Source: an uncultured virus (IMG/VR IMGVR_UViG_3300009370_000022) (Duplodnaviria > Heunggongvirae > Uroviricota > Caudoviricetes). Taken from it: a DNA stretch of 64,000 nucleotides. The notes under the pieces were generated by a model. It did not search any database. It had not been told where the DNA came from and was given only the letters and a program-made list of their open reading frames with translations. Numbering within the stretch: position 1 is the first letter of the stretch; every line of letters begins with the position of its first letter. Positions 17,942 to 57,407 of this stretch are shown piece by piece. The stretch lies in IMG/VR virus record IMGVR_UViG_3300009370_000022; one strand, written 5' to 3'. A program made the position numbers and the translations under genes.

Positions 17942-18802
17942 TTACTTAATTTTTCTGCCTTCGTCAATGAATCTTCCACGATAAGCAAAGTCCCCATGAT
18001 GAGTAATGTAGGCATCCACATTAGCATAGATCTTACCACCAAGAGCAGTCCATCTATTACAAAATGCGTAATCTTCCCCTATGAATTCTCCTGTTTCTTG
18101 GTTAAAATCAGTATCAAAAAAGTTCCACATCTCATCTTCTCCTGCCAGAATACCGTTAACTAAATGCTTTTGTTTAATAAGTAATTTAGGATAAGCTTTA
18201 GCCATTTTTTCAAAGACTTCTCTTTTAATTAACATACACCCAGCTGGTCCTTTTTTAATTTCTACTAAACCATCTACACTTTCAATATTATTTTTATCTG
18301 GAAATTCCATGCAATAATAGTAAGGACATTCTTCAATTGGTCTTCCACTTTTTTCTGCCATATCTCTGGCTTTATCCCAATTAACTGCTTTCATGGGATA
18401 AGGTGTAAGTACAATATCTTTATCTGCTTTTAACATCATAAGAATAGAGGTAGCATCAAATTCAATATCTGAATCAATGAATAAAAGATGTGACATTTTA
18501 GAATTTAAGAAAGATTGTACACACATATTTCTCCCTGTAATAATAATGGAAGATCTTACCATATGAAATTGAGGAATAATATTTTGTGACAAGCACAGAC
18601 TTTGAAGTTCTAATAAAGATTTCACACAACTTAATTTAATCTCTCCCATGTTAGGAGTAGCTACAAACAAAGTATCTTTAAGGTGAGAATGTAATGTAGT
18701 GTCTATTATTTGGCTACCATTGATGGTGTTCTGTTCATACAATTTAACCTCAGGATCAAATTTATCATCAGTTAAAAAGCTATCATTTGCTTCCATCTTC
18801 AT
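17942..18802 (-). CDS. GT-A fold glycosyltransferase-like protein
   Basis: FVATP, GRNMCV, HLLFIDSDI (DxD), GCMLIKREVFE, GEDYAFC. Confidence 0.85.
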   Translation of the reverse strand: MKMEANDSFLTDDKFDPEVKLYEQNTINGSQIIDTTLHSHLKDTLFVATPNMGEIKLSCVKSLLELQSLCLSQNIIPQFHMVRSSIIITGRNMCVQSFLNSKMSHLLFIDSDIEFDATSILMMLKADKDIVLTPYPMKAVNWDKARDMAEKSGRPIEECPYYYCMEFPDKNNIESVDGLVEIKKGPAGCMLIKREVFEKMAKAYPKLLIKQKHLVNGILAGEDEMWNFFDTDFNQETGEFIGEDYAFCNRWTALGGKIYANVDAYITHHGDFAYRGRFIDEGRKIK

Positions 18803-19742
18803 GGGGGAGTCCTTTCTGTATCAAAGCATTATTTAAAAAAGCTATCCATTCTTTAACTCTTTGATCCCAATCATAGAAGTGCATAAAATGTTGTCGTTGA
18901 TTTTCTAATCTATTTTGAATATCTTTTTGAGGTAGTATTTTTTTAATATATTTAACATGCTGTGCATAATCTAAGGCCAATTGTTTAGGGTTCTTATTGT
19001 AGTTAACATAGAATCCATAGTCATGACATGTTTCAAACAATGCCCCAAAGTTAGTTACCAAGGGTATACATCCTGCGGCCATCGCTTCTATAGCTGAGTT
19101 ACATGAAGTTTCTTCCCAGATCGAAGGGTAAGCAAAGATATGGCTATCTTGTAAAGCTTGGAATACTTCTTCTTGAGGAGCATATCCTTTGAAGTTAACA
19201 TTCTTCATTGATTTTGCATGCTCATAGATAGGTTGATAATATTTATCATTAGCTTCTTTAAAAGAATCTCCATATATTTGAGTAGAACTATAAACATCTA
19301 GTATAATATTCTCATCTTTAAGAAAATGCATAGCGGCTAACAATACATTTAATCCTCTCCAAGGAGTAATGTGATGAATTAATTTTAAAGTTTCACCTTC
19401 TGTGTAATGTTTTTTAGGTTGCCAATTGAATTTCGGTAAGGCATTTTTAATAACAAAAGAACGAGAAGTAGGAATATCAAAATGAATCCTAAACTTTTCA
19501 TAATTCCAATGAGAATTAAAAACATACCAATCATATTTAACATGATTCTCTTTTCGTAAGAACCAGGGCCTAAGGTTTGGTTGATCATAAGAATTTTTTT
19601 GCCATAGTATATTTAATTTACTTTGATCAATAGGATGTTTTTCTGGTACAGATGTAGTAATAGCAATCTTCTTCCAGTAATGTTTAGGAAGTCTCTTTCT
19701 AAGTTCTTCCAACTGTATCTCTGTTCCACCTTTAGCTTTCAT
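18783..19742 (-). CDS. GT-B (GT4-like) glycosyltransferase
   Basis: GGTE, PWRGL, YPSIWEETSCNSAIEAMAAG, GALFET. Confidence 0.9.
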   Translation of the reverse strand: MKAKGGTEIQLEELRKRLPKHYWKKIAITTSVPEKHPIDQSKLNILWQKNSYDQPNLRPWFLRKENHVKYDWYVFNSHWNYEKFRIHFDIPTSRSFVIKNALPKFNWQPKKHYTEGETLKLIHHITPWRGLNVLLAAMHFLKDENIILDVYSSTQIYGDSFKEANDKYYQPIYEHAKSMKNVNFKGYAPQEEVFQALQDSHIFAYPSIWEETSCNSAIEAMAAGCIPLVTNFGALFETCHDYGFYVNYNKNPKQLALDYAQHVKYIKKILPQKDIQNRLENQRQHFMHFYDWDQRVKEWIAFLNNALIQKGLPHEDGSK

Positions 19743-19992
19743 TTGGGTTTTTTACTGTACCCCCCACTAAATCAATGTGTGGTGCAATAATAGTTACATC
19801 TCTCCTTATATGTTCTCGCTGGGTAGTAGTAGCTGGGTTATCTACATCATCGTCAGCTTCTTTATCCGAATTATATTCTTGATTGGTTTGAGTATTCCAT
19901 AATTTAACAATAGTCTTTCCTCTATACTTAGGAACTTTTTCACCATTGATCATAGCATACCCTAAAAATTCACCTTTTTCTTCAAAACTCAT
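19732..19992 (-). CDS. Hypothetical protein
   Basis: Tightly packed in the operon. Confidence 0.6.
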   Translation of the reverse strand: MSFEEKGEFLGYAMINGEKVPKYRGKTIVKLWNTQTNQEYNSDKEADDDVDNPATTTQREHIRRDVTIIAPHIDLVGGTVKNPNES

Positions 19993-20336
19993 TATGTTCT
20001 ATCCTGTTCTAACACGCTAACAAATACATTAGCAGATGTTACTGTTGTTTGAAAGTGTAAAGCGTCTGATTCTTCTAACACTAATAGAGTACTTTCGTCT
20101 CCTTGAAGGAACTCTTTTTTGGTAGCTGCCGTAACTGACGATTCTCCTTTATAAACATAAGAAGCACTAGCACTATTATCATGTACTTTTAAAATCCAAT
20201 TAGTAGCGGAACTTGGATGAGTATTATAAGCAGAAATAGATTTTACCAATGCTACATTTGCGGCTGGACAAGTATACACAGTGGTAATATCTGTGGTTGC
20301 TAGTGGTGTAATATTAATTTTATATTTATTAGCCAT
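19992..20336 (-). CDS. Small beta-rich virion protein
   Basis: MAN start, VYTCP, LVLEESD; similar to the 30250-30642 protein. Confidence 0.6.
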   Translation of the reverse strand: MANKYKINITPLATTDITTVYTCPAANVALVKSISAYNTHPSSATNWILKVHDNSASASYVYKGESSVTAATKKEFLQGDESTLLVLEESDALHFQTTVTSANVFVSVLEQDRT

Positions 20337-20358
20337 TTCTTCTTTTCTATTTTATACC

Positions 20359-20526
20359 TTAACTTGTAAATAAAGTAAAGGCTTCCATTTCATCCTTTAA
20401 CTGTTGCTGATAAGTAGTGTTTAATTTTTGTACAATATTAACTACATTGTTTGATAAACCTTGTACATTAATTTGTTGAAACTCCGGTCCTAAAATATCT
20501 GTTACAACTTCAACTATCTTTGCCAT
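20359..20526 (-). CDS. Small protein (55 aa), not in the ORF track
   Basis: MAKIVEVVTDILGPEFQQ...EMEAFTLFTS; TAATG overlap with the nozzle gene. Confidence 0.65.
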   Translation of the reverse strand: MAKIVEVVTDILGPEFQQINVQGLSNNVVNIVQKLNTTYQQQLKDEMEAFTLFTS

Positions 20527-22688
20527 TATCTTCTGCCTCCTGCATTAATATCTAATCTAAAAGTTCCCATTCTCCAACTCTCTCCTGTTCCTATATTCCC
20601 TATTTTCAACGCAATTTGTCGAGCTCGTTTTCTAGTCCAAATTTGGGTAGTACTGGTAGTGGATGCATAAGAAGTTGATACCGCGGCGGCATTAGGAAAT
20701 GTTTTAGAATTTAAATAAACTTTAGCGTCTCCTGTTTGTTGACCAAAGTCAGGAATAATTCTACTTACTCTCATAATATATTCTCCTTGTCCTTGAATAC
20801 CTTCTTGTCTACTGATGTCATAGTCTCCTGATTCTACATAACCTTGAATAGCTGTAGTAGTTCCATTAGCTTTAACTTGGTCGGTTCCTATATTATGCTG
20901 CCAAAAATAACTGGCTCCATTAGTAACTCCACCGACACTTGGGTAAGTAGGAGCTTCTCCTGTTTCATATTCGGTTGCATAAGGATTAGAATAAATTCCT
21001 TGTTGGACCCATGTAGTTCTATCTAAAGAAGATGTATACCAAATAGGTCTATCAGGAGTAGACTCTAAATAATTGTATGTAACTGATCTATCTACATAAC
21101 TTGACCCACTACTACAATAAAACCACGTGACTTCACCAAATATATTATCTACCGCTGCATGAATTTGTTGATTAGCACTAGCATTAATATCTTCAAAGAC
21201 ATAATCTTCTACTAAACATAACATACTTTCTACACGACCGCCGGCAAATCTAAAGAAGCCGTTAGGGCCCATCCAATAAGCAATACCATCAATCTCTACG
21301 GCAGCATGTTGACTAGAAATACCACAGTTAGTTCCCACTTGATCAAATCCAAAAGTAAATGGAGGACCAATAAATCTCATAGTAAACATAGCTGTATCGG
21401 ACCAGATATATAAAGCAGTTCTACCTGTAGTACATGCCATTAATTTAGAACCATCGGGTAAGGTTTGACTACCAGCTGTGTTAGTTGCGGTAGGGGTATA
21501 CGTATTAATATCTTCTTGATCAGAAAATCTTACAAACATCTCATTTTGAGAAGTAGATGTTCCTATTGTTTCTTCGGTACCAATAAATACTAAGTGTCTA
21601 TCTGGAGTAGATACCATCATATCTCTAGAAGCGGTAGGTGCTCCGGACACCACTGTTGCTCTTACTGACAGATTAGCGAATGAAGGATTCCATTCAAATA
21701 CTTTTTTATTATGAACTAATGCTAAAAGTTTTTCTCCATAATTAGTTAATCTCCATTGACCGGGTTCAATAACTACGTGAGAAGAAGAACTTGCACTGCC
21801 CCAACCTACATAACTGGTTGCATCATACACTGTATCGCCAGCGGTGTGGGCAGCTCGTGTGCTTCCACTCGCTGCTCTAGTAATTCCTGTAATAGTATTA
21901 GTTCCTGTATTATTTCCAGTATAACTAATGAGTTCACTGCCTATCTGAATAGTACCTGACGGAGAAGAAAAAGCTGATGTTGAGGTTAATGTAATTTCTG
22001 TGGAAGGAGAGCCTCCAGTCCCAAAAGCATCATTTCCTAAATTTCCAACGAGTGTCGTTAAAGTAGGAGGAACTACTCTACCACCATAAGTATTAGTGCC
22101 CCAACCATAACCATAACCTTGTGTGATTGGACCAATAATATAATAAAAGTTTACATCTACACTTCCCCCAGTAGCCGCTGATCCTGCGCTTGCTGAGGTA
22201 ATAGTAAAAGTGGTAGGAGTAGGTGTTGTAATAATTTCAAATAATTTATTTTCAAAATCGGCGTCTGTAAGTCCTGTACCACCAGGTAAAGTTACTGCAT
22301 CTAGTAATATAATATCTCCTACGGATGCTCCGTGGGCCGTGGACGTTGTAATAGTGACCGAGGTTGTACCATCAAAGGTCCATGTAGCAGTGCTTTGTTT
22401 ACGGGTAGCATCTAAAGGGGTAATGTCATAGAAAGCACCTTCAAAATAGATATACAGCATTTTATTAGTACCAATAGCCGCGTACCTATTGCCATCATTA
22501 TCTACCCATACGTGCTGATCTCTCCCAGCACCTACTAAAAGATCACTTCCTAACTGAGACCATCCACCTATTTTTTCAGGATAACCATATCGAAACCGAG
22601 CATAGTCGGCGTTGACCCATTTTCCTTCGGCTCCAGTGTCTGATGATTGTTTATCTAAACCTGGTTGTAGTGTAATTTTATGAAGCAT
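20526..22688 (-). CDS. Tail nozzle/packaged-DNA stabilisation protein (beta-propeller type)
   Basis: About 720 aa, beta-rich; RFRYGYPEKIGGW, VRFSDQED; GGAG RBS before the ATG at 22688. Confidence 0.75.
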   Translation of the reverse strand: MLHKITLQPGLDKQSSDTGAEGKWVNADYARFRYGYPEKIGGWSQLGSDLLVGAGRDQHVWVDNDGNRYAAIGTNKMLYIYFEGAFYDITPLDATRKQSTATWTFDGTTSVTITTSTAHGASVGDIILLDAVTLPGGTGLTDADFENKLFEIITTPTPTTFTITSASAGSAATGGSVDVNFYYIIGPITQGYGYGWGTNTYGGRVVPPTLTTLVGNLGNDAFGTGGSPSTEITLTSTSAFSSPSGTIQIGSELISYTGNNTGTNTITGITRAASGSTRAAHTAGDTVYDATSYVGWGSASSSSHVVIEPGQWRLTNYGEKLLALVHNKKVFEWNPSFANLSVRATVVSGAPTASRDMMVSTPDRHLVFIGTEETIGTSTSQNEMFVRFSDQEDINTYTPTATNTAGSQTLPDGSKLMACTTGRTALYIWSDTAMFTMRFIGPPFTFGFDQVGTNCGISSQHAAVEIDGIAYWMGPNGFFRFAGGRVESMLCLVEDYVFEDINASANQQIHAAVDNIFGEVTWFYCSSGSSYVDRSVTYNYLESTPDRPIWYTSSLDRTTWVQQGIYSNPYATEYETGEAPTYPSVGGVTNGASYFWQHNIGTDQVKANGTTTAIQGYVESGDYDISRQEGIQGQGEYIMRVSRIIPDFGQQTGDAKVYLNSKTFPNAAAVSTSYASTTSTTQIWTRKRARQIALKIGNIGTGESWRMGTFRLDINAGGRR

Positions 22689-22729
22689 ATAACTCTCCAA
22701 GAGTAAAATATACTACATTTAACCTATAA

Positions 22730-23359
22730 TCAATTAGATTTAAAGCCTTTATACCAAGCAGGAAGTCCTAAAAATGGACGTTTATCAAATTCATTTTCTT
22801 TAGCTAGTTTAGAACCTTTTTTATTATAGTGTAAAAATACTTGCCCACAATTTTTTCCACTAAATTCTTCTCGCCAATGTTCAAGATCACATCCAGAATA
22901 AAGAAGCATATCTCCTGGTTTTAAATCTATTTTAATACCTGCCTGCCCTTTTTTACCGGTTGGATCTAAATAAATAGGCCAGGGATCTCCTCCTAAATGT
23001 AAAGTAGTGGAGACCTCACAAGAATATCTATCTTTATGTCTAGCAAGTATATCTCCTTGTTTATATATTCTTGCATAGGAATATGTAGGACTTAATTTAA
23101 GCGCGGTATGTTTTTCCATAACGGGTTGAACTTTTTGTAATAAAGTTTCCATAACTAAATCTGCATAATGAGAATAAGTATTAGGGACTTGCTGATCATT
23201 CCATACTCCCAAATATTCTGTAAAAGGTGATATGTATCTAGAATCAAATAAAAATCTGGTTACCTTTCTTTTATTTAGAAAATAAGCAAAACAGAAGTCT
23301 GCCATTTCTCTATTAATAGCTCCTTTTAACACTGTATATTTATTTTTTTTGAACGACAT
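22730..23359 (-). CDS. 2OG-Fe(II) oxygenase
   Basis: HKDR (HxD), GDMLLYSG..LEHWRE. Confidence 0.85.
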   Translation of the reverse strand: MSFKKNKYTVLKGAINREMADFCFAYFLNKRKVTRFLFDSRYISPFTEYLGVWNDQQVPNTYSHYADLVMETLLQKVQPVMEKHTALKLSPTYSYARIYKQGDILARHKDRYSCEVSTTLHLGGDPWPIYLDPTGKKGQAGIKIDLKPGDMLLYSGCDLEHWREEFSGKNCGQVFLHYNKKGSKLAKENEFDKRPFLGLPAWYKGFKSN

Positions 23360-24092
23360 TTAATACTCCTTTCGGTATAGCCTGACAGTTAAAATGTATA
23401 AATCTAAAGGGTTCATAGCCCATATCCACCGCATACATATGTGGCAGATACGATGGAAAGAATATCATCCTTCCAGGTTTTACTGTATAATTAACTTGAT
23501 TACTAGCATAAGTTATTTTAGCTGTGTCTTTTTGAGGTAGAAGATTCATTACATTCCCCGCTCTTGGGTCTTCGAATATAGGTCGTGATGTTTTCTCGCT
23601 GGCTTTTAAAAAATAGAATCCTGAGATATGACCATTCCAGTGAGTGTGTAAGGTATGGTGACCTCCCCCTTTTTTAGCAAATTCTTGAACCCACAGTTCT
23701 GTTAGAAAAATTTGATGATGAGTTAAATCAAAACCCATCTCTATCAATAGATTGTGAGCCGTGGCTCCTATATAATTTTGTAGGTCCAAAAAATGAGGGT
23801 CTCCTATTAAACTTGTTGAATGAAAAACATGGCCCATATCGCCATGGTCCCCAAACTTTTTATTTCTTTTATCTATATCTTTTTTTAAATTTTTCTTAGA
23901 CTCTTCTATATATTTATCAGATGCTGTATTTAAATCTTTCACCAATTCAGGTGCGTCCCCAAACCATATAGGGCATTTAAAATAATCTTCTAAAGATAAT
24001 TGTTTAGGAAATGTTTTAGCACTTCCACACGATATTTTTTCAAAGTCTTCTTTGCGTCTTTTATTTCTAACTTTCTTCTGTTTCTTTTTCAT
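23340..24092 (-). CDS. 2OG-Fe(II) oxygenase (TIGR02466-like)
   Basis: HTH..HISGFYFL, FEDPR, FFPSYLPH. Confidence 0.85.
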   Translation of the reverse strand: MKKKQKKVRNKRRKEDFEKISCGSAKTFPKQLSLEDYFKCPIWFGDAPELVKDLNTASDKYIEESKKNLKKDIDKRNKKFGDHGDMGHVFHSTSLIGDPHFLDLQNYIGATAHNLLIEMGFDLTHHQIFLTELWVQEFAKKGGGHHTLHTHWNGHISGFYFLKASEKTSRPIFEDPRAGNVMNLLPQKDTAKITYASNQVNYTVKPGRMIFFPSYLPHMYAVDMGYEPFRFIHFNCQAIPKGVLNVVQKK

Positions 24093-24100
24093 GTTCTCCT

Positions 24101-24733
24101 TTATTTATATGGCCACCCTAAATTCCAGATAACCAAACTATGTCTAGATCCTTTTTTAACTGGACATACTCTATGCCAAACAAACCCAGGAAACACAACT
24201 AAGGACCCTTTAGGTAATATTTCTTTACATTTTTTAATGTGACGTTTTTTATCCGGATCATAGTTTCTAAAATCAAATTCTAATTCACCACCTTTATAGT
24301 CTTTTGGATCGGATAAAGTTAAAGTTACAGATAGTTTTCTAATCCTGCCGTTTGCTGGGTCTTTACCGGGCTTTTGATAAGGTTTGTCCCAACCATCACA
24401 ATGCCAACCATAATATTGCCCTTTATTATATTTTGTAAATTGACAAGATTCTGACCAATCCCATTGAAAATTCCATCCTGCATTTTGATTTGCTCTGTGA
24501 ACATAGGGGTGAATTTCACTATATATCCACCTATCATTCATCCAGACCACATTGGAATCTCTTTTCTTTTTTAAATCTTTAATTTGTTGGTTACTTAATT
24601 TTTTAGGATTAGAACCTAGACCTCCTGTCAATGCCATTTGATCTTGTAGTTGTTTTCCATATCGTACAATATCATCACAGATTCTTTCAGGAACTGCTGA
24701 TTCAAAATACCAAAAATAGTGTGTTAAATTCAT
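24101..24733 (-). CDS. 2OG-Fe(II) oxygenase, prolyl-4-hydroxylase-like
   Basis: QFTKY, WHCD, RKLS, GGELE, FP..VWHRV.PV..G.R.SLV.W. Confidence 0.9.
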   Translation of the reverse strand: MNLTHYFWYFESAVPERICDDIVRYGKQLQDQMALTGGLGSNPKKLSNQQIKDLKKKRDSNVVWMNDRWIYSEIHPYVHRANQNAGWNFQWDWSESCQFTKYNKGQYYGWHCDGWDKPYQKPGKDPANGRIRKLSVTLTLSDPKDYKGGELEFDFRNYDPDKKRHIKKCKEILPKGSLVVFPGFVWHRVCPVKKGSRHSLVIWNLGWPYK

Positions 24734-24800
24734 ATGTCTTTATACATTGATTTTATATTAATTAAAACACAGAGTAAAGAAAAATATTAATCTAGATCAC

Positions 24801-25361
24801 TTATTTAAAATTTAAAATTAATATTATTCTCTGTTTTCCCTCCTCACAAAAAGAATTAGCGTGATAATATTGGCCATTAAAACAGATTATTTTACCTTGT
24901 TCCGGAGAGATAGTCTTTAAAACTTTAAAGTGAGGCTTTTCCTCCACCGGATATACTTGTGTATTTTTTTGATATTTTTTATCAAAAATTATAGTGTCCC
25001 CCGTGGTCTTATTTAGATACATTATACATACTTTATGAGATGAGGGCCAATCTACATGAGGATCAGAATATGCAAATCTTTTGTCGGCAAAAGTAAGATT
25101 TAAAGAACCTCTCAATATTTCCTTACATTTCAAGTTATGATCTTTTAGAAATCTTTTAAAAATATTTTCAAAAAAAGGAAATACTCCAGAATTAATCTTC
25201 TTCTCATGTCTTTTAATTAAGCTATGCGACATAAAAAAGAACTTATTAGTGGTAGGATTAGGATGAAGATACCAAGGAAAAGTATTCTTTAAAATATCTC
25301 TTTCGATGGTAATTATCTCTTCTTGTGTAAAAAATAGTCTACTTTCTTTGTAATGTAACAT
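24801..25361 (-). CDS. 2OG-Fe(II) oxygenase
   Basis: PHVD, YLN..GDT, FNGQYYHA, RIILILNF. Confidence 0.85.
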   Translation of the reverse strand: MLHYKESRLFFTQEEIITIERDILKNTFPWYLHPNPTTNKFFFMSHSLIKRHEKKINSGVFPFFENIFKRFLKDHNLKCKEILRGSLNLTFADKRFAYSDPHVDWPSSHKVCIMYLNKTTGDTIIFDKKYQKNTQVYPVEEKPHFKVLKTISPEQGKIICFNGQYYHANSFCEEGKQRIILILNFK

Positions 25362-44064: not shown

Positions 44065-47000
44065 TTAACCTACTCTAACTTGTTTTATATCAGAAGGCAA
44101 CCCCATGATTCCTTGCGGATTAGGCCCTGCTAATGGAGGTACTAAAGATTGTCTCCTTGCAATATCCCCTGTTTCAACTGTTCCACCACCAGCCTTTTTT
44201 TGCCAGGTATCTTTAGGAACCCATTCAGGGACCTCTCCTCCCACAACCTCTGCACCTTTTTCTCCTGACCATCCTTCAGGAGTCATATGTCCTTCAGGGT
44301 CAGGTAGAAGAGCTGCTTCTCCTTCGACGTCTTTAAAAATTTTCTTTTTAAAAGCTTCATCAACATCCGGTGCATCTGTAGTCTCGATAATAGAACCATC
44401 TTTAGCTACCATCTTTTTGTTACCTGTTAAATTTTCTAACGCTGCAACGACCTCATCTCCTTCTTCAAAAATATCTTTATAGTCAAACTCATCTCGCATT
44501 GGCGTAGACTGATCAGGATTGCCATAAGTAAATTCTGGTTCTTCGACTTTAACCCGCTGGTATTCCCAGGCCCCAGGATGTTCGGGATCTGCACCAAATT
44601 TCTGGAAACCCGTTTCTCCCGGTTTAAAGTTAATCCGTCTTGTCATATCACCATCAAAATCGTCCACGCTCCAAGAAATATCAATTTCTCCACTTATTGG
44701 ATTTTCTTCCAGTAGGACTTTTTTATTTACCATTTCAAAACCTGATTGTTTTTGCTGACCAGCTACCATGTCGAATTTAGGAACTTTAGTTGAAAGAATC
44801 ATTTCATAAATATCTCCATTCACATAATCTTTATCCGCCATCTGGATTAACTTCCCATGAGTTTTAATCTTAGCCACCGCTCTCGGGAACCACGCCGGCA
44901 TACCGTCTACTCCTACAAATTTTTTAGGGGCTTGTTTCACCGCTTGCTCTATTCCTTTTTTAGCACCTGTTTTAAATAATCCCGAAGCTCCGCCCGCGAT
45001 CCCCGCTGCAAGGCCCGCTAACCATTTTAAAAATCCTCTTCTATCCATTCCGCCACCAAACTTCATGCCCACACGTCCACCTTCATTAAAGAAATCAAAA
45101 TCATCAGCTCTATCTAAAGCTCTAACGTCTTTTCTCTTATCTTGGAATAAATCAATTTGTTCTTCCAGTCCTGAAAGAACTTGTCTTTGTTGAGTAGGAT
45201 CTAAAGTTTGTCCTCTTAATGTCATTTCGTCATCACCCCATAATCTATTACCTAAACCAAATGGTAAACTTCCTTGTTTAATAAGCGACATATAATTTTC
45301 TGCATCTTCTTCTGAAATTTTTCCTCTAGCTCTCATTGAATCTACAATGGCTTTTCCATCTCGGTAATCTTTGTATTGAGCATAACCAAAACTTAAAGCT
45401 CCTAGACCTAATGTTAAGGGTGCTGAAACTAAACCGGCTGCAACTGTAGCCGGTAAAAGAGCAGCTGCTCCTACTCCTATGGCAGCTCTCTTAGCTAATG
45501 CACCTAATCCTTTTTTAGCTACTTGTTTGGCCCCAGGAGAACCAATAATTGCTTCTGTAAGTTTTTTAGTTGCAGGTTTTAATCTTTTTTGAAATGCTAA
45601 ATCTGTTCCTGTAGCTGCGGGCGACATCATAGCTGTTCTCATAGCGCCTGGTAAATTTTTCCAACCTTGTACACTCTTTAAATTTTTAAGAGTGGTCATG
45701 TCTAATCCTCTTAGATTATGTTGTTTCAACATATTAGCATAATAAGCTTCTGCTGCTTTTAAACTTTCAGGACCTCTAATTCCTAAAGCCCATAATGCAT
45801 TCAATGGATCCGTGATCATTTCTCCAGCTTCCATTCCTTGTTTCCATTGCCACATTTTTTCTGGAATCATCATGGCTGGAATCATGGCCGTCCAACTTGT
45901 TAAATATCTTCCTCCTGGTAATCCTGCTTTAGCTAATGCTTGTCCTGCTCCTAACATAACGGGTAAAGCTGCAAATCCTGACTTAACTGGATTGTCTGCA
46001 ATCCAGTTTAATATTCCTTCTTGAGTTTCTGGATCTCCTGTTTCTGTGTTTACAAATTCACCCGTTGTTGAATTATATTTCATCGACTGGTCCGTGATCC
46101 CTGTTTCGTCAGCCTCCGCATCTCCCATCAGGGCTGCCGTACCAAGGCCCACGGCTCCCGCTCCTGCGACCAGGGCTCCAAGTCTTCCGCCTTTAGGGAT
46201 CTTGGATAAAAGTTGTCTAGCTATAGTTCTGAATTTTGTATTTTCACCTGGTTTAACTTTTGAGTTAGCAGCTTCTTGTATTAGTTGATCAGGGTTTTCT
46301 TGTAATGCTTGTTGCACCTGCTTAGCACATCCAGGTCCTTGAGGGCCTCCAGCTGCTTCTCCTACTCTAATATTTTTAACAGATGAAAGATTACAAATTG
46401 GACCTCCAGCTTGTCCTTGAGCAATAAAGTCTCTTATGTTATCTTCTATTTTAAACATTGCAGGATCATTTAATTTTCTAAATGATGCGGGAAGAATACT
46501 TGCTTTTGGTCTAACAGCTTCACTTCCCTCTAACATAATTCTACTTACTTCTGCAAGATTAGTATCGGTGGAAGCTGCTACAATATTTTTTCTAAGATCT
46601 AAATTATCAGCTAATTCGTTTATTAAATTTTTATTTTTATCTAAAATATTAGTTGCTCCAAAATCAACAATTTTAGTGACTCCAATTTTTTTACCACCCG
46701 GTTGAACTCTAATTTTACCCAAACTAGATTTATCCCCGGTCATCGTTTTCCAAATACCTTCCAATTGTTCTTGATTAGTTAAATATTTTTTATAAGTAGA
46801 CATGTCATTATTAGAAATAGCTTCTTGCATTCTTCTTAAATTTAATTGGGATCTTCGATCAAAAGTAGATTTAATAGCATTAATATCTTTCATCATAGGA
46901 GTAACCGCTAAAAATTGAGTTAAATTCCCATTTTTAATAGCTCGATAGGAAGCTGCATGATCTAAGTTAATCCACTTACTATCTATTCCATTATTTTCCA

Positions 47001-48033
47001 TGGCTGCTTTAAACATGTTGAACTCTCTTAATTTCTTGAGAGCTGCTTTTCTTTCAGGAGAACCATCTTGCGTGGAAGCTAAAATACTTTGAAGAATAGT
47101 TCGTTGATATGTTTTTTCTAAAGACTCAGATTCATAAACTTTTTGTCTAACTTTTTCTAATTCTTTATCACTATATTGTTTTAAAAATAAAGGTTGATCT
47201 GCTCTATTAGTTTTAGCAAGATTTCTCATCAACTTATTCATGTTGCCTTTAAGACGACCTGAATTAAATTCAAGTTTCTTCATTAAGGAATCAAAATCAT
47301 TATCGCCTGCTAAGATAGCTTTAAATAATCTGTTTTGATTTTTAGTGTATTTTAAGCCACTAGTATATCCAGTGAATTTAGCTCGTTGCTTTTCATTCAG
47401 TAAAGAAGTTTTTCCTTTATCAGTTCTTTGATACATAGTTTTGGCCTCTTCATTACCACCAAAAACCTTATCTAACCCTTTTCCTTCTTCTAAATTAATA
47501 GTTGGATTTTCTTTAACGATTCTATCGATTACAGCCCTATTTAAATCTGTTGGAGAAAAAGGATCTCCCTCTGCTGCTAATCTATTGAATTCATCTAAAA
47601 AAATAGGGTTATAACTCTCATGTAAAATTATTTTTTGGGCTTTGTTTAAAGGGGTAGTCTGTTTTTTAATATTTTCTAATTCATAAGACTTATTCTCAAT
47701 TAATTGATTTTTTATTCTTTGTTTTTCTTCTTTGAGTTTTATTTTTTCCTTAATCTTATCTAATCTTTTTTGTTCTTTTACCTCTTTTTTATTTTGTATA
47801 ATTCTTAATTTTTGTTCTTTTTCTTTTTTCTTACGTAGTCTTGCTTTTTCTCTTCTTGCCGGTCCATATTTTTTTTCATATTCTCTGGCTTTTTTAGATT
47901 CATTCTTTTTTCTTATCCCAGCAATCCACTCTTTGCTTCCTATATAATGAGTTTGAGTATCTCTTGGACCTATATACGTGCTATAAGTACCAGAGTTTTT
48001 GCCAGTGCCTTTTATGGTTTGTTTAATGGCCAT
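44065..48033 (-). CDS. Large multi-domain protein (HNH-like segment, TM segments, internal Tat-like signal)
   Basis: LDH...N..K, hydrophobic helices, FNEGGRVGMKFGGGMDRRGFLK. Confidence 0.7.
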   Translation of the reverse strand: MAIKQTIKGTGKNSGTYSTYIGPRDTQTHYIGSKEWIAGIRKKNESKKAREYEKKYGPARREKARLRKKKEKEQKLRIIQNKKEVKEQKRLDKIKEKIKLKEEKQRIKNQLIENKSYELENIKKQTTPLNKAQKIILHESYNPIFLDEFNRLAAEGDPFSPTDLNRAVIDRIVKENPTINLEEGKGLDKVFGGNEEAKTMYQRTDKGKTSLLNEKQRAKFTGYTSGLKYTKNQNRLFKAILAGDNDFDSLMKKLEFNSGRLKGNMNKLMRNLAKTNRADQPLFLKQYSDKELEKVRQKVYESESLEKTYQRTILQSILASTQDGSPERKAALKKLREFNMFKAAMENNGIDSKWINLDHAASYRAIKNGNLTQFLAVTPMMKDINAIKSTFDRRSQLNLRRMQEAISNNDMSTYKKYLTNQEQLEGIWKTMTGDKSSLGKIRVQPGGKKIGVTKIVDFGATNILDKNKNLINELADNLDLRKNIVAASTDTNLAEVSRIMLEGSEAVRPKASILPASFRKLNDPAMFKIEDNIRDFIAQGQAGGPICNLSSVKNIRVGEAAGGPQGPGCAKQVQQALQENPDQLIQEAANSKVKPGENTKFRTIARQLLSKIPKGGRLGALVAGAGAVGLGTAALMGDAEADETGITDQSMKYNSTTGEFVNTETGDPETQEGILNWIADNPVKSGFAALPVMLGAGQALAKAGLPGGRYLTSWTAMIPAMMIPEKMWQWKQGMEAGEMITDPLNALWALGIRGPESLKAAEAYYANMLKQHNLRGLDMTTLKNLKSVQGWKNLPGAMRTAMMSPAATGTDLAFQKRLKPATKKLTEAIIGSPGAKQVAKKGLGALAKRAAIGVGAAALLPATVAAGLVSAPLTLGLGALSFGYAQYKDYRDGKAIVDSMRARGKISEEDAENYMSLIKQGSLPFGLGNRLWGDDEMTLRGQTLDPTQQRQVLSGLEEQIDLFQDKRKDVRALDRADDFDFFNEGGRVGMKFGGGMDRRGFLKWLAGLAAGIAGGASGLFKTGAKKGIEQAVKQAPKKFVGVDGMPAWFPRAVAKIKTHGKLIQMADKDYVNGDIYEMILSTKVPKFDMVAGQQKQSGFEMVNKKVLLEENPISGEIDISWSVDDFDGDMTRRINFKPGETGFQKFGADPEHPGAWEYQRVKVEEPEFTYGNPDQSTPMRDEFDYKDIFEEGDEVVAALENLTGNKKMVAKDGSIIETTDAPDVDEAFKKKIFKDVEGEAALLPDPEGHMTPEGWSGEKGAEVVGGEVPEWVPKDTWQKKAGGGTVETGDIARRQSLVPPLAGPNPQGIMGLPSDIKQVRVG

Positions 48034-50507
48034 TAAACCCCCCTAAACATGGAGCCTACACCACCGCCTGCTGCGTTTTTAGTTCTTGGTGTTTTTTGAA
48101 ATGTTTGTATAATCTCTTCAGGACCCATTCCTTTTTCTTGCATCTTTAATGCTTCCCTCATTGTTGCTTTAACTTCTGCAATTCTTTGAGGATTCTTATC
48201 TGCTAAAATATTATTAATTAAATCATCCGTAATTCCTGGGAATTCCATTTGTAACTGATATCTTTCTGCAGATTGAGGTAAACCTAAATCTTTAAGTTGT
48301 GAAATTTCTTTTTTAATTCCACTTAATTCATCTTTAACAATAGGAGAATCGGCTTTTCTAATATAATTATTAATATCTAAAAATTGATCTGGCATACCTC
48401 TTTGAATTCTTAAAAAATCAAACATTGCAACATTACCCCCTAGTTCTTCAGTAATATCTAAAGCCACTAATCTATTTTTAACTCCCTGTCTGATTTGTCT
48501 CATATCTTCCCAATTAGGATGACGTCTTGATGGAAGGGGACCTAATTTTTTTAAAGTATCTTTTGCTTTAGCTCTTTCAAGCGCAATCCAATTTGATGGA
48601 ACTTTCTTACCTAAATAATCTACCGCATCTGGTCTAAAAAATTTTTCTTGTAATAACCATGTTGTATGATCTGTTGATTCGGGGTCCAAGAAGTGTTTAT
48701 TTTTAGTTGGAGTTGCAATAGGCCCCATCACTTTAGCTTCAGCTGCGGTCATTAAATCTTGGGTATCTAATTTCATATTAAAATCTTCAAATAGTTTTCT
48801 AGTTGCTTCATCTTCAACTGCTGTTTCAGGTCGGTCTATATCTGCAGCTTTTTTCAAGGTTCCTTCTCCAAATTTATCGTCTACTTTTTTAATTAAACTT
48901 TGAATTCCTTTTTTTCCGGAACCTTTCCACATTCCTACTCTTCCACCTTCAGCTAATCCAAACATTTCCAATTTCTTTTTCAGAGTCTCCCACCAATCTG
49001 TTGTAGCTTTTTGTCTAGTTGATTTATCTAATAAAATATCACCTGGTCCAACAAAAGGGTTCTTTTCAAAATTTCTTTCAAGACCTTCTTGAACCTCCCA
49101 TGGCTCAAGTTCTATTTTTTTAATCTTAGGTATTCCAGAGGTAGAAGCATAAGCTCTGGCTATGTCTTTATCAGGCGAAAAAAATCCTCCTTTTAAGTCT
49201 TCGTCAAAAGTAGATTCTTTCATATATTTACCCCATCCTGCATCCGTTTGATCTTTTATCAATTGGTCATGAGTTTTTTTCCACTCAGGATCGTCTTTAA
49301 ACTCCCCCAAATGACCTTCACTTTTATCACCTCTATAATACGTCTTTTTAGGACGTTTATTCCATTCATCGATTTGATAAGCTAAAGATCTTTTATTCGC
49401 AAGAATTCTATTCTCATTAATCTTAGCACCACTCATTTCATCCGCTGTTGTTATAAAATCGTCAAGAATTTCTTTTTCAAAAATTTTACCTTCATCATCA
49501 AGATCCCTTACTTTTTTAAACATACTTTCTAAACCTTTTTTTTCACTTAAATTTTTATTAGCCCAATCTTTAATTTTATGGACTAAATTTTTAGTAGCGT
49601 CTTTAGATCCATATTTTAATCCCACTCTTCCACCTTGATTAAATGGAATATCGTCGTCATCAGGTAATTTTGGTTTAATTTCTTCTGCCTCTGTTAGAAC
49701 ATATCTCCCATCTCCAACATCTGCTTGATTTAAAGGTTTTAAAAACTGATCATCAACATTTTCTCTTAATAATTGTTCATAATGTTTGTAGCTTTCACCT
49801 TTTTCGAAAACCGTTACAATATCTTCAACGTTTTTAATTGCATCATCTCCATAAAGTCTTTGAAACACTAAAATAGGATCGTGTTCAATCATTGGCGAAT
49901 ATTTCAGAACTCTTTCTTTATCTAAGTCGTTTAATTTCAATCTTCCGTTTTTAAACTCGGTTTGAAGGAATTCTCTAAGTGCTGTTCTCATATTTCCTTC
50001 GGCATACATGCTACCACCAAAAGATTTGTTATCTGGAACTTTAAACGGGTCTCCTCCATGTCCAGCGGTTAATAAAGCCTTCTCCAGTTCTTTTTCTGCA
50101 AAAGTTTTAGCTTCATCAGTTGATGTTTTTAAATTTTTGGCAGCATCTTCTAAATCTGTCATAGCTTTCATCATAGAACCCACTCCTTGAGTGTCTACAC
50201 CTCCTCCACCAATACTTTTGTAAGTATTAAGATTATTTAAAAAATTTACCGTCTCTGCATCATTAGCATTCATGATGAATTTTGCTTCATTAGCAAAAGC
50301 ATCTAATGCATCACCCATAGTTTTATTTTGAGAACGCATTGCCTCTAACATGTTGGGCTTAAATGGATTAATGTCCTTACCGCTAGTAATTCTTTGAATA
50401 TTAGTACCTCTACCCATGATATCACTTGCTTTGATACCAATTCCTTCTAAAGCTTCTAAAACTTTTTTCTTTAGGATCTCAGATGTGACTCCAGGTATTT
50501 TTGGCAT
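48033..50507 (-). CDS. Multi-domain protein with an ART-like module
   Basis: YYRG...GFFSPDKDIARAYA between two GGRVG motifs. Confidence 0.7.
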   Translation of the reverse strand: MPKIPGVTSEILKKKVLEALEGIGIKASDIMGRGTNIQRITSGKDINPFKPNMLEAMRSQNKTMGDALDAFANEAKFIMNANDAETVNFLNNLNTYKSIGGGGVDTQGVGSMMKAMTDLEDAAKNLKTSTDEAKTFAEKELEKALLTAGHGGDPFKVPDNKSFGGSMYAEGNMRTALREFLQTEFKNGRLKLNDLDKERVLKYSPMIEHDPILVFQRLYGDDAIKNVEDIVTVFEKGESYKHYEQLLRENVDDQFLKPLNQADVGDGRYVLTEAEEIKPKLPDDDDIPFNQGGRVGLKYGSKDATKNLVHKIKDWANKNLSEKKGLESMFKKVRDLDDEGKIFEKEILDDFITTADEMSGAKINENRILANKRSLAYQIDEWNKRPKKTYYRGDKSEGHLGEFKDDPEWKKTHDQLIKDQTDAGWGKYMKESTFDEDLKGGFFSPDKDIARAYASTSGIPKIKKIELEPWEVQEGLERNFEKNPFVGPGDILLDKSTRQKATTDWWETLKKKLEMFGLAEGGRVGMWKGSGKKGIQSLIKKVDDKFGEGTLKKAADIDRPETAVEDEATRKLFEDFNMKLDTQDLMTAAEAKVMGPIATPTKNKHFLDPESTDHTTWLLQEKFFRPDAVDYLGKKVPSNWIALERAKAKDTLKKLGPLPSRRHPNWEDMRQIRQGVKNRLVALDITEELGGNVAMFDFLRIQRGMPDQFLDINNYIRKADSPIVKDELSGIKKEISQLKDLGLPQSAERYQLQMEFPGITDDLINNILADKNPQRIAEVKATMREALKMQEKGMGPEEIIQTFQKTPRTKNAAGGGVGSMFRGV

Positions 50508-54355: not shown

Positions 54356-55357
54356 TTAATTTACACTTGCATTTTGTTGTTGCTCGTACAACATTCTAGC
54401 CTTTATTTTATCCTCTCTTGTTTGGTTTTTGTTTTTCATACCTTTAATCCTATCAGCTAGGTTTTTAGGATTATATATAACAAGTCCGGTTGAGTTTGTT
54501 CTGATTATTTCTGCGTCAGAAATATTCAAACCAAGTTCTGTCGCTAACTCAATAGCCTCGTCAAGATATTTATAACCTTTTAGACCAATTTTAATTTCTT
54601 TCATCTGATCTAAAATACTTTTTATCCAATTTCTATGTGCCATAACAAATTGACCTTTGGCTTGTTTCCATTGTTTAAGCATTAAAAATTGTTGTTCATT
54701 ACAAGCAATAGAACGATCTCTACAATATTCTCTACCAATTAAATCTAATTGGTATTTTTCATTCCATTGTTTGCCATATCCACTATCATCACTTCCAAGA
54801 TATTTAGTATTGTTGTCAGTATATTTTGTTAAATGTGGGTTGTTGTCTTTGCCCTCTTGTTCGATCAAAATATCTGGATTGCAATTATCTTGTGCCTTTA
54901 GTTCATCACGATACAAAGCATAGCCATACGCACTATCATCAGAATAACTATCGCTATTATTTTCCATACTACCATTTAGTCTAAAATCAAAATGTTCTTC
55001 AATAGTATCTTGTTTCATGATTGGATTGTTGTCATAATCTCTATCTTCTTTCATACCTAAATAATGAAAATGAAAGCAACTATCTTTCGCAATAGTCGAA
55101 ACATTCTCAAATTTATTCTGTAAGTGATATGCCATTTTGACATCTTCTGGAGTATAATGTTTTCTGACAATAGTTTCTGCTAAATTCCACGCATTGTCAT
55201 TTAACTCAATTTGATCTGCTTTGAGTTCATCATACTTTGTTTTTTCTTGTGTTGGTTCTTGTTCCAAGTGTACTCGCATACGATTTGCGATTTTATTTCT
55301 ATACTCTTGGTTTAGTCTTATTCTACTCATTTTTGCCTTTCTGTTTTTATTTTGCAT
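54356..55357 (-). CDS. Hypothetical early protein (333 aa)
   Basis: Long ORF; no motif recognised. Confidence 0.8.
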   Translation of the reverse strand: MQNKNRKAKMSRIRLNQEYRNKIANRMRVHLEQEPTQEKTKYDELKADQIELNDNAWNLAETIVRKHYTPEDVKMAYHLQNKFENVSTIAKDSCFHFHYLGMKEDRDYDNNPIMKQDTIEEHFDFRLNGSMENNSDSYSDDSAYGYALYRDELKAQDNCNPDILIEQEGKDNNPHLTKYTDNNTKYLGSDDSGYGKQWNEKYQLDLIGREYCRDRSIACNEQQFLMLKQWKQAKGQFVMAHRNWIKSILDQMKEIKIGLKGYKYLDEAIELATELGLNISDAEIIRTNSTGLVIYNPKNLADRIKGMKNKNQTREDKIKARMLYEQQQNASVN

Positions 55358-55363
55358 GATTTG

Positions 55364-55402
55364 AAATTAACACTTGACATTTATTCTGTCAAGCATTAAA
55401 TA
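55364..55402. promoter_or_regulatory. Overlapping divergent promoters
   Basis: TTGACA...TGTCAA inverted pair; minus TTGACA-17-TAATTT, plus TTGACA-17-TAAATA. Confidence 0.6.
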
Positions 55403-55409
55403 GGATTAA

Positions 55410-55897
55410 TTAATTATGTATGAGAACTGATGGAATTCTAGGTTGTACGCCTCTGATTAATTGGGACAACTTCTGGTTGTAGTACGTCACACCGACATTA
55501 GCCGTCCGTCTTCGTGCTATGAACTAGAACTGATCCCTGATCGCTGTTAGCTCAATGGCAGAATTTCGAATTCACCAATAGTCCAGCGATCTGGGATCAG
55601 ATGTTGTAACTGCTGGATTTAAACGGCTATAGTACAGGTTGCAAGCGAAGTCACGCTGGCTATCAGTGTAGCTACGGAGGTAGCCTGCCTGCACAGGACA
55701 ACAACTGATCCCTGGTCCATATTATTAGTTGCCAGTAGCAGATCTCAATGTGGTTGCGAAGAGTATGGGCCTGGGATCAGGAATAATGAGAAAAAATCAG
55801 CTGTCTGCGGCCGGCCTAAACATTCAGCCAGGTTTTGCTCATACGTGTTCTATAGTAAGCACGTATGGGTTAGTATGAAATTTTTAACCCGGCCGGA
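55410..55897 (+). ncRNA. Candidate structured non-coding RNA (multi-hairpin)
   Basis: No ORF of 60 aa or more; GC-richer than the flanks; at least five stems, with G-U pairs on the plus strand. Confidence 0.6.
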
Positions 55898-55911
55898 ATT
55901 TTAAAAAGCTT

Positions 55912-55959
55912 CAAGCAACGAGCAACAAGCTTGACAGGACCTGTAGGATAGTATAGGAT
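55912..55959 (+). promoter_or_regulatory. Promoter with upstream heptamer repeats
   Basis: CAAGCAA CGAGCAA CAAGC then TTGACA-17-TAGGAT. Confidence 0.8.
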
Positions 55960-56216: not shown

Positions 56217-56226
56217 ATTTAAGCCT

Positions 56227-56274
56227 GAAGCAACAAGCAGCAAGCTTGACAGCTGGTCCCGGAGATGATAGGAT
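56227..56274 (+). promoter_or_regulatory. Promoter with upstream heptamer repeats
   Basis: GAAGCAA CAAGCAG CAAGC then TTGACA-17-TAGGAT. Confidence 0.8.
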
Positions 56275-56469: not shown

Positions 56470-56617
56470 TTTATTAAATTATTTCATCCATGATAAGCAG
56501 GACCTGAGTCCTGCTTACGTGCGCAGCTGTGAAAAGTTTTTTAAAAGCCTGAAGTCTCAAGCAGCAAGCCGCAAGCCGCAAGCGCCACGAAAAAGACACA
56601 ATCATGAATTAAAATAA
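56441..56617 (+). CDS. Small protein (58 aa), not in the ORF track
   Basis: MTRIRSNHNNLLNYF...; AGGAG RBS; C-terminus encoded by the heptamer repeat. Confidence 0.6.
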   Translation: MTRIRSNHNNLLNYFIHDKQDLSPAYVRSCEKFFKSLKSQAASRKPQAPRKRHNHELK

Positions 56618-56628
56618 AATTAGAAAGT

Positions 56629-57225
56629 ATGAAAGTTAAAGAAGCTCAAGCAATCACCGGGTCCATGACCCGCACGTCTAAGATGCCTGGCCTAAGCTAC
56701 AGCCTGCCAGCATGGGAATGCCAAACGGGCTCTAAGCTCCGGAAGGTTAAAGGCACGCCCTGCTATGGCTGTTATGCCCTGAAAGGAAATTATTTAAGAT
56801 ATCCAGCAATTAAGAAGGCACAGTACTACAGGCTGGCAAGCCTGGTCCATGACTCATGGGTCGTGGCTATGGTTGCACAGGTGAAGAGACAGAAATATTT
56901 TAGATGGCATGACGCCGGAGATGTACAGAGCCCCGAGCATATGAATAAAATTTTAACAGTTTGCAGGTTAACACCTGACACGAAGCACTGGCTGCCAACA
57001 CAGGAGCGCGCGTACCTGCCAGATCCTGAAGAGGTGCCCGTTAACCTGGTGATCAGGTTGTCAGGGTCGAAGGTCGATGGACCACCACCGACGGCCTGGG
57101 CTCATACATCATCAGTCGTAACGAAGGGCGCAACATGCCCCGCGCCTCAACAGGGCGGCAAGTGTAAAGAATGCAGGGCCTGCTGGACAAAATCAATTAA
57201 AAATGTAAGTTACGGAAAACATTAA
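56629..57225 (+). CDS. Gp88-like, Cys-rich radical-SAM-related protein
   Basis: C-x13-CYGCYA, FRWHDAGD, HWLPT, C-terminal C..C.ACW. Confidence 0.75.
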   Translation: MKVKEAQAITGSMTRTSKMPGLSYSLPAWECQTGSKLRKVKGTPCYGCYALKGNYLRYPAIKKAQYYRLASLVHDSWVVAMVAQVKRQKYFRWHDAGDVQSPEHMNKILTVCRLTPDTKHWLPTQERAYLPDPEEVPVNLVIRLSGSKVDGPPPTAWAHTSSVVTKGATCPAPQQGGKCKECRACWTKSIKNVSYGKH

Positions 57226-57227
57226 TC

Positions 57228-57407
57228 ATGACACATGTATTCAAACACCCGAAGTACTGGGCAGAGTTAAGAAAAACATACAAGCAAGCACGGACCAACG
57301 AGCAACGAGCGAGCACCGATCAACAAGCGAGCAAAGTCTCGAGCACCGTGGACCACGAAGCACGAGCAACGGACGAGCAAGCAAAGCCTTCCCTTAAAAG
57401 ATCCTGA
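57228..57407 (+). CDS. Small protein (59 aa) running into a repeat tract
   Basis: MTHVFKHPKYWAELRK...; overlaps the VRR-NUC gene convergently. Confidence 0.45.
   Translation: MTHVFKHPKYWAELRKTYKQARTNEQRASTDQQASKVSSTVDHEARATDEQAKPSLKRS

Follow-up and report, generated by a model that had tools for sequence, protein, structure and literature searches.

A gene-free stretch at about 55410-55880 of the window (the whole 64,000-nucleotide stretch of DNA that was analysed) holds a non-coding array, of which two hairpins built on an identical base are two cassettes. This array is real and widespread, and as a system it is undescribed in the literature searched. We tentatively propose that it encodes a polycistronic non-coding RNA, processed by RNase III into a library of self-dimerising small-RNA decoys. 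Judged from its sequence, the window is a near-complete podovirus genome close to Pelagibacter phage HTVC027P, with identities of 72.5% for the terminase, 73.4% for gp88 (HTVC027P gp33) and 42.9% for the left neighbour of the array. The gene-free stretch has a G+C content of 46%, compared with 37% for the window, and is located between a leftward 333-aa gene and the rightward gp88 gene, with the following features.

54356..55357, minus strand: 333-aa gene, HTVC027P gp35 homolog (early gene), conserved left neighbour
55374..55406, no strand assigned: divergent promoter-like motif (TTGACA 55374-79, inverted TGTCAA 55387-92, TAGGAT 55401-06)
55463..55537, plus strand: predicted lead unit, domain A, in which the GGGACAACUUCUGGUUG leader would close on the handle 5' arm up to C8
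55530..55600, plus strand: handle hairpin 1, with 8 bp, U·U (55538/55592), 8-bp upper stem and 37-nt head
55565..55573, plus strand: overlapping palindromes TTCGAA and GAATTC, tip of head 1
55595..55712, plus strand: predicted multibranch linker unit, domain B, which after a cut would self-close via GAUCAG/CUGAUC
55705..55780, plus strand: handle hairpin 2, with 8 bp, U·U (55713/55772), 10-bp upper stem and 40-nt head
55740..55745, plus strand: AGATCT, a palindrome and predicted kissing site within the apical loop (16 nt) of head 2
55837..55870, plus strand: hairpin with loop palindrome CTATAG (CTTAAG in the related locus L051), likely the 3' end of the array
55931..55959, plus strand: next promoter-like site, TTGACA-17-TAGGAT, right boundary
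56629..57225, plus strand: gp88-family gene (PF17338), conserved right neighbour

The two hairpins had been predicted to have an identical base with a U-U mismatch, and upper stems that differ but still pair, and both claims were confirmed. The 5' arm AA-CTGATCCC-T is found at 55528-55538 and 55703-55713, the 3' arm T-GGGATCAG ends at 55600 and 55780, and the upper stems pair as claimed, GATCGCTG with CAGCGATC in hairpin 1 and GGTCCATAT(T) with (A)GTATGGGCC in hairpin 2. The arm pattern has two matches in the window and none in 100 shuffles, and the folding z-scores on the plus strand are -4.93 and -5.06 for hairpins 1 and 2, respectively, with none of 200 shuffles equally stable. On the minus strand the values are -4.20 and -1.72, the stability of hairpin 2 being lost because this hairpin uses G·U pairs. 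The heads, expected to be of about 37-40 nt, measure 37 and 40 nt; the first belongs to a family of four and the second is of the UAUUA[G/C]U..G[U/C/G]GAAGA family. The motifs CUCAAUG and GCAGA, thought to be common to the heads, are present in both, yet no more than expected by chance: a 7-mer is common to 7.4% of shuffled head pairs and 6.7% of random real head pairs, CTCAATG occurs in 1 of 326 head families, and GCAGA in 15 of 326 (11.9 expected). Overall, the original prediction of a constant handle presenting variable heads stands as regards the handle, and indirectly as regards RNase III, but finds no support as regards guides and is plausible as regards decoys, and it overlooked the palindromes in the loops and the fact that spacer and leader are cassettes as well.

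The leftward gene encodes a protein with no Pfam family, and its structural model (pLDDT 80.5) gave no Foldseek match at E 0.001, a best VIA Z of 5.3 and a blank Atlas result, an absence that is uninformative on its fold. The HTVC027P homolog is reported as an early gene with a peak mean TPM near 2.1e5 (PMC12753301). Rightward activity of the divergent promoter-like motif is presumed; the consensus promoter scan of the window does not list the site. Its inverted TTGACA/TGTCAA hexamers (55374-55406) are conserved in relatives and could bind a dimeric regulator between divergent promoters. No intrinsic terminator is listed by the window scan, and the commonest 3' flanks of handles are not U tracts. 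Short repeats containing AAGC or GAGC (e.g. AAGCAACAAGC) occur at 55906-55936, 56221-56251, 56545-56583 and 57286-57379 of the window; these runs directly precede TTGACA promoter-like sites, recur in most relatives, and are possibly binding sites or another RNA feature. Elsewhere in the window, two large proteins with repeated GGRVG motifs and without Pfam family are encoded before the terminase (44065-50507), and a glycosyltransferase and three 2OG-Fe(II) oxygenase genes are located near glycine-rich tail proteins (17945-25361).

Searching viromes for the handle and comparing heads, as had been suggested, revealed that in hundreds of phage loci the handle stays constant and the heads vary. 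Four IMG/VR pattern scans and one metagenome scan each gave at least 120 matches, and since most of the patterns fixed T·T, counts from a T·T-free scan and from protein-anchored loci are preferred. Among the matches listed for the T·T-free scan, 111 of 146 carried T·T or the reverse A·A and 12 carried A-T or T-A, the other 23 being mostly chance matches in G+C-rich contigs. Of the loci anchored on the left-gene protein, 62 of 70 contained the handle (10 more were too short), as did 43 of 53 anchored on gp88 (27 more were too short, and 2 more had a second handle type only); T·T had the expected orientation in 60 and 42 of these, respectively, and never lay on the opposite strand. Arrays with one handle account for 21 of the 70 and 30 of the 53 loci, gp88 lies downstream of the handle in 46 of 50, and the median distance from promoter motif to next promoter is 450 nt (134 loci, among the matches listed). 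Dispersed copies of the MITE/REP kind were not found, a single handle locus being present in five of five genome records and also in the window. HTVC027P carries at the same place one handle and a variant handle, with nothing annotated there. One IMG/VR contig (L438, L628, L708) is nearly identical to the window (left protein 100%, gp88 99%) and therefore gives no independent support. In GTDB (185,579 prokaryote genomes) four handle matches were obtained, all on contigs shorter than 7 kb, two of which encode the phage left gene and one of which has the phage promoter and array layout.

The handle is absent from 8 of the 70 loci, and the array is therefore accessory; some of the handle-less loci have almost no intergenic DNA. 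It is likewise absent from the examined stretches of HTVC023P, DSL-LC04 and HTVC033P (7.5-8.6 kb each). The intergenic regions of L657, L663, L667, L668 and L672, without handle, still hold other folded modules and GGGTGGGCCC repeats, and in L667 and L663 a head with its upper stem only is found directly behind a promoter-like site. A second handle type, CATTATTTGC-T-GGWCC..GGWCC-T-GCTAATRAT, was observed in 26 distinct hairpins (e.g. L121 3410-3470, L067), with C-U-G on both strands around U·U and the same head families.

Among the matches listed, 641 distinct hairpins fall into 389 head families of 40-140 nt (blastn-short, E 0.001), for which Chao1 gives about 900. The same head family can be found with many different neighbours, in two handle types and in inter-handle spacers (839, 39 and 124 contexts). 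Only 1 of 24 phage pairs with 90-97% gp88 DNA identity had a head family in common, compared with 3 of 3 at 97% or above, and cassettes are likely shuffled by homologous recombination between the repeated arms. Head inversion was considered and rejected, with only 12 minus-strand matches from few pairs. Some heads (e.g. L059/L085) resemble H-type pseudoknots or three-way junctions, and ATTCTAG occurs in 11 unrelated head families (0.7 expected). C-rich stretches like ACCUCCCC, at L121 3380-3395 and in several domain-A heads, resemble an anti-Shine-Dalgarno sequence; AGGAGG occurs in no head (2.8 expected).

The fold of handle and heads as RNA is well supported. In 455 distinct hairpins among the matches listed, oriented by T·T alone, the cells of pairs 11-17 are Watson-Crick in 2911 cases, G·U in 228, A·C in 12 and of other kinds in 34, and because G·U greatly exceeds A·C (228 versus 12) we conclude that the plus strand folds single-stranded as RNA, although wobble taken alone would also be compatible with single-stranded DNA. 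At pairs 14-17, which are fixed by no pattern, the counts are 132 G·U and 2 A·C. Among 160 tetraloop hairpins there are 20 GNRA loops versus 2 reverse complements, and when the first 60 of 134 regions were folded, the plus strand proved the more stable in 58. The geometry of 8 bp, U·U and a further 8-12 bp is found in 279 of 326 cases. In the hairpin-2 family (27 members) 98.2% of cells are paired and nine pairs have changed on both sides, a covariation above that of all shuffles and slid controls in a set of related sequences. Contigs from RNA libraries cover parts of the array (runs X17 and X18) or touch its tail (X19), with word shares of 0.04-0.08, such contigs carrying neither strand, ends nor level; the array is presumably transcribed.

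Another feature of the heads is the palindromes in their loops. Palindromes of 8 nt occur in 116 of 326 family representatives, versus 44 in dinucleotide shuffles, and the excess was replicated in families first seen in the metagenome scan (23 of 63 versus 7.5). Predicted terminal loops contain 6-nt palindromes in 39 cases versus 10.2. In the hairpin-2 family a palindrome is present in 44 of 49 variants versus 14.8 (one variant being a spurious long match) and varies over more than 12 sequences in a fixed frame, whereas in the seven variants of the head 1 family, for which the signature is weaker, TTCGAA is replaced by CTCGAA in five and GAATTC is kept in all seven. Heads of domain A, an internal control, show no excess (23 of 62 versus 24.8), and the palindromes are therefore not a by-product of structure. 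Adjacent bases cannot pair inside one chain. The loops are self-complementary and covary across the dyad (44/49; 27 distinct palindrome-to-palindrome swaps), which is the signature of kissing homodimers; against these swaps stand 92 distinct aligned changes that break a palindrome, a count covering all aligned palindromes, many of chance origin. At palindrome edges there was no bias of G·U over A·C (56 versus 52). Palindrome switching is described as a mark of cross-chain kissing loops in the OLE and GOLLD RNAs (10.1101/2024.12.08.627333, section 6). Kissing between modules of one molecule was rejected, a second copy of the loop palindrome being present in 9 of 72 cases (8.0 expected), as was a restriction-site decoy, given that loop palindromes do not track avoided palindromes (Spearman 0.02).

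Both strands of the lower handle stem have alternative partners in the neighbouring units. A GGGACAACUUCUGGUUG-type leader motif was found in 76 of 134 regions among the matches listed. The 3' arm GAUCAG meets an alternative partner CUGRUC, with at least two further pairs, in 324 of 682 arms versus 6.7 in shuffled ones, and this pairing, which closes the next spacer, has its partner outside any other handle in 256 cases and uses G·U in 123. Likewise, of the first 220 of 388 lead arms, 109 have a GGGA upstream with which UCCC of the 5' arm pairs, compared with 32 in shuffled and 23 in reverse complement controls, a lead-unit count that derives largely from one family. The alternative pairings exclude the lower stem of the handle and therefore make sense if this stem is broken. 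On the 5' side they stop at C8, U9 having a base opposite that could pair with it in 14 of 195 (for the most part a single family). On the 3' side they stop at G6', and G7' has a C or U opposite in 42 of 84, a frequency near chance. Ends at these two positions amount to a 2-nt 3' stagger, the geometry of cutting by RNase III, for which sequence rules are reported in E. coli (PMC6212723). In the best register, between C8 and U9 and between G7' and G6' (plus or minus 1 nt), A/A' is C-G and D' is A-U, in agreement with the E. coli rules (G-C/C-G at A/A' and A-U/U-A at D/D'), while D (pair 11) agrees, as A-U, in 48% and is G-C in 51%, and B', being C-G, does not fit. The stem below the inferred cut has 6-7 bp, compared with a substrate of about 22 bp, and is short unless neighbours stack. 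The predicted products in the window, 55463-55537, 55538-55594, 55595-55712 and 55713-55774, are each closed by their own stem, as folded in a register one base off. The host has an expressed rnc gene, SAR11_1053 (PMC12753301). The RNase III-type processing originally suggested thus receives indirect support, the alternative pairings ending where a cut with a 2-nt stagger would leave its ends.

Based on these results we propose a mechanism in which the divergent early promoter would very probably make a transcript of 300-750 nt. In this transcript each handle almost certainly forms, as the covariation indicates, a single helix of some 19 bp that includes U·U, and three segments would be joined by this helix, namely the 3' tail of the preceding unit, the head enclosed by the handle, and the leader at the 5' end of the following unit. 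Host RNase III would then, somewhat more probably than the contrary, cut the handle next to U·U and leave 2-nt 3' overhangs, the freed units re-closing as RNAs of 50-120 nt. Many units are expected with fair assurance to homodimerise via their self-complementary loops, in view of the covarying palindromes. The resulting compact, two-fold symmetric RNAs could, at a likelihood just short of even, act as an accessory, fast-evolving library that binds defence or regulatory proteins of the host, as decoys or aptamers, and recombination between repeated arms would swap cassettes between phages. The decoy or aptamer role is a hypothesis, whose case is made by an accessory locus on the side of an early promoter, by constrained diversity and by heads that show no guide behaviour where testable. 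More speculatively, the array may do through RNA alone what an anti-defence gene island does: it would be a recombining set of about a thousand naturally evolved aptamer folds, which RNase III cuts from a single transcript, and the units, each closed on its own stem, would form two-fold symmetric dimers or a network that binds and neutralises dimeric host proteins. Other candidate functions were tried and rejected: a CsrA sponge (GGA in 151 cases versus 153.9, not enriched), D-arm/T-loop tRNA mimicry by head 1 (neither ARAGORN nor Rfam gives a match, and in most of its family CUCGA replaces UUCGA), and mimicry of rRNA processing stalks, the handle being unlike the Ruegeria and Rhizobium 16S flanks in a weak test confined to 16S flanks.

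The main rival explanation, which we consider unlikely, is that the transcript stays uncut, the handle serving as a structural brace or as the place where a dimeric protein docks, and that self-kissing loops build an RNA network, cage or condensate. Arrays do carry several palindromic loops, which differ within one array as expected of orthogonal cross-links (1 of 33 pairs in common, 4.6% expected), and C-U-G/C-U-G around U·U is retained in the second handle type. The phage RNAs ROOL and GOLLD are reported to form cages through kissing loops (10.1101/2024.12.08.627333), but cage-forming RNAs keep one conserved fold and the heads do not. Moreover, an uncut network leaves the mutually exclusive partners of both lower handle strands unexplained and sits poorly with the many one-handled arrays (21/70 and 30/53 loci).

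Less probable again is that the heads are base-pairing RNAs, either antisense to host mRNA or guides taking a phage enzyme (e.g. gp88) to palindromes in DNA or RNA. Guide segments were part of the original prediction, and hypervariable heads on a constant frame, gp88 as the usual neighbour and the C-rich, anti-Shine-Dalgarno-like loops of some modules would all suit them. Nevertheless, 12-16-mers of the heads have no excess matches in five related phage genomes, which speaks against self-targeting guides, and an rRNA mimic or antisense was rejected as well, the heads matching one E. coli rRNA operon no better than shuffled heads do, in either orientation. The loop palindromes are also unrelated to palindrome avoidance in these genomes, gp88 is found without the handle (HTVC033P; 10 of 53 loci), and what covariation preserves in the heads is a fold and not a free seed.

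Slightly less likely still is that the hairpins act as single-stranded DNA, be it as recombination sites like attC, as an origin primed by the promoter, or as templates from which cDNA hairpins are made in the manner of UG27. Cassettes are shuffled, G·T wobble in DNA likewise favours one strand, the palindromes resemble sites of dimeric DNA-binding proteins, and GNA triloops are strand-biased as well (15 versus 3). Against this, no reverse transcriptase, integrase or HUH family was found in 69 of the 70 ORFs of at least 70 aa in the window, which is no shorter than the complete genomes of relatives (57.6-60.9 kb). In addition, the 389 families have no single fold as RT templates would, the heads are non-coding, unlike integron cassettes, and the cumulative GC skew has no turn at the array, which argues against an origin. 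The loci without handle, some with almost no intergenic DNA, and the occurrence of GNRA and UNCG loops and of an Rfam RNA family all on one strand also disfavour a DNA role. Finally, it is very improbable that the array is debris, neutral or selfish, whose symmetry is maintained by template switching and gene conversion, for although the U·U mismatch is repaired in 28 of 512 handles, 14 each way, and pair 11 agrees between handles of one locus in 71% versus 50% expected, template switching cannot yield a bias of G·U over A·C, covarying family-specific internal motifs, palindrome swaps, or a fixed place and orientation.

If our preferred reading, a processed library of self-dimerising decoys, is true, the array represents a new class of phage tool, a hypervariable and protein-free RNA library, borne by HTVC027P-like pelagiphages, which are very common ocean viruses of SAR11 bacteria. 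Structural work would also gain hundreds of small RNA folds that occur naturally and come with their own dimer loops. The proposal is testable now, since HTVC027P and its host are cultured and an RNA-seq time course of infection is published.

The array also provides a genomic home for an orphan motif, the Flavobacterium-1 RNA (RF02976) of Weinberg et al. 2017 (PMC5737381). This RNA is one module of related arrays, with five matches above the gathering score in 68 sources, HTVC027P included, all on the T·T strand of the handle and with a variable palindromic loop in the last hairpin. Its covariance model (at least 58.9 bits) has no match in the window and covers one head, the handle and the array lying outside it. 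A Flavobacterium single-cell scaffold (KB911123.1; L485 362-771) carries Flavobacterium-1 together with the handle and the phage promoter layout, and Flavobacterium-1 is therefore probably a pelagiphage RNA and not one of Flavobacterium. The literature searched, which included pelagiphage papers and stopped short of the supplements of Weinberg et al. 2017 and Fremin et al. 2023, does not describe the array, and the pelagiphage papers in it do not deal with non-coding or intergenic elements; those supplements may list single modules, the latter paper reporting candidate RNAs linked to Pelagibacter phages (PMC10690425).

By the tests run, the array belongs to none of the nearest layouts, namely UG27 arrays, RNase III stalks and multimeric ornate RNAs. 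Stems of the T7 early transcript and the stalks of rRNA operons are RNase III processing stems. The dicBF stem of Qin is described as another, and the handle resembles all of these in its helix of about 19 bp made from the ends of neighbouring units, in C-G at the inferred cut and in the 2-nt stagger; the known stems separate genes or fixed RNAs, whereas here the products would be an exchangeable library. UG27, as reported (bioRxiv 10.64898/2026.09.22.753630), is a phage-encoded variable array of diverse non-coding RNA units with short constant motifs, and is alike in that units are gained and lost and that no genome complementarity was found. In contrast, its units all adopt the same fold, of about 150 nt, and depend on a three-protein RT complex that makes cDNA, while in the present array no RT was found and there are hundreds of head folds with palindromic loops. 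OLE, GOLLD and ROOL are non-coding RNAs, two of them phage-borne, whose loops also switch palindromes (10.1101/2024.12.08.627333), but each is a single large conserved fold, and no Rfam match to them was obtained here. With respect to function, pseudo-ToxI and adenovirus VA RNA are small RNAs of viral origin that keep defence proteins of the host occupied. Racr RNA anti-CRISPRs are phage RNA decoys as well (PMC10651486). All these decoys copy a known host RNA, whereas no host model for the heads was found, yet occupying host defence proteins is the very way of working that we propose for the array.
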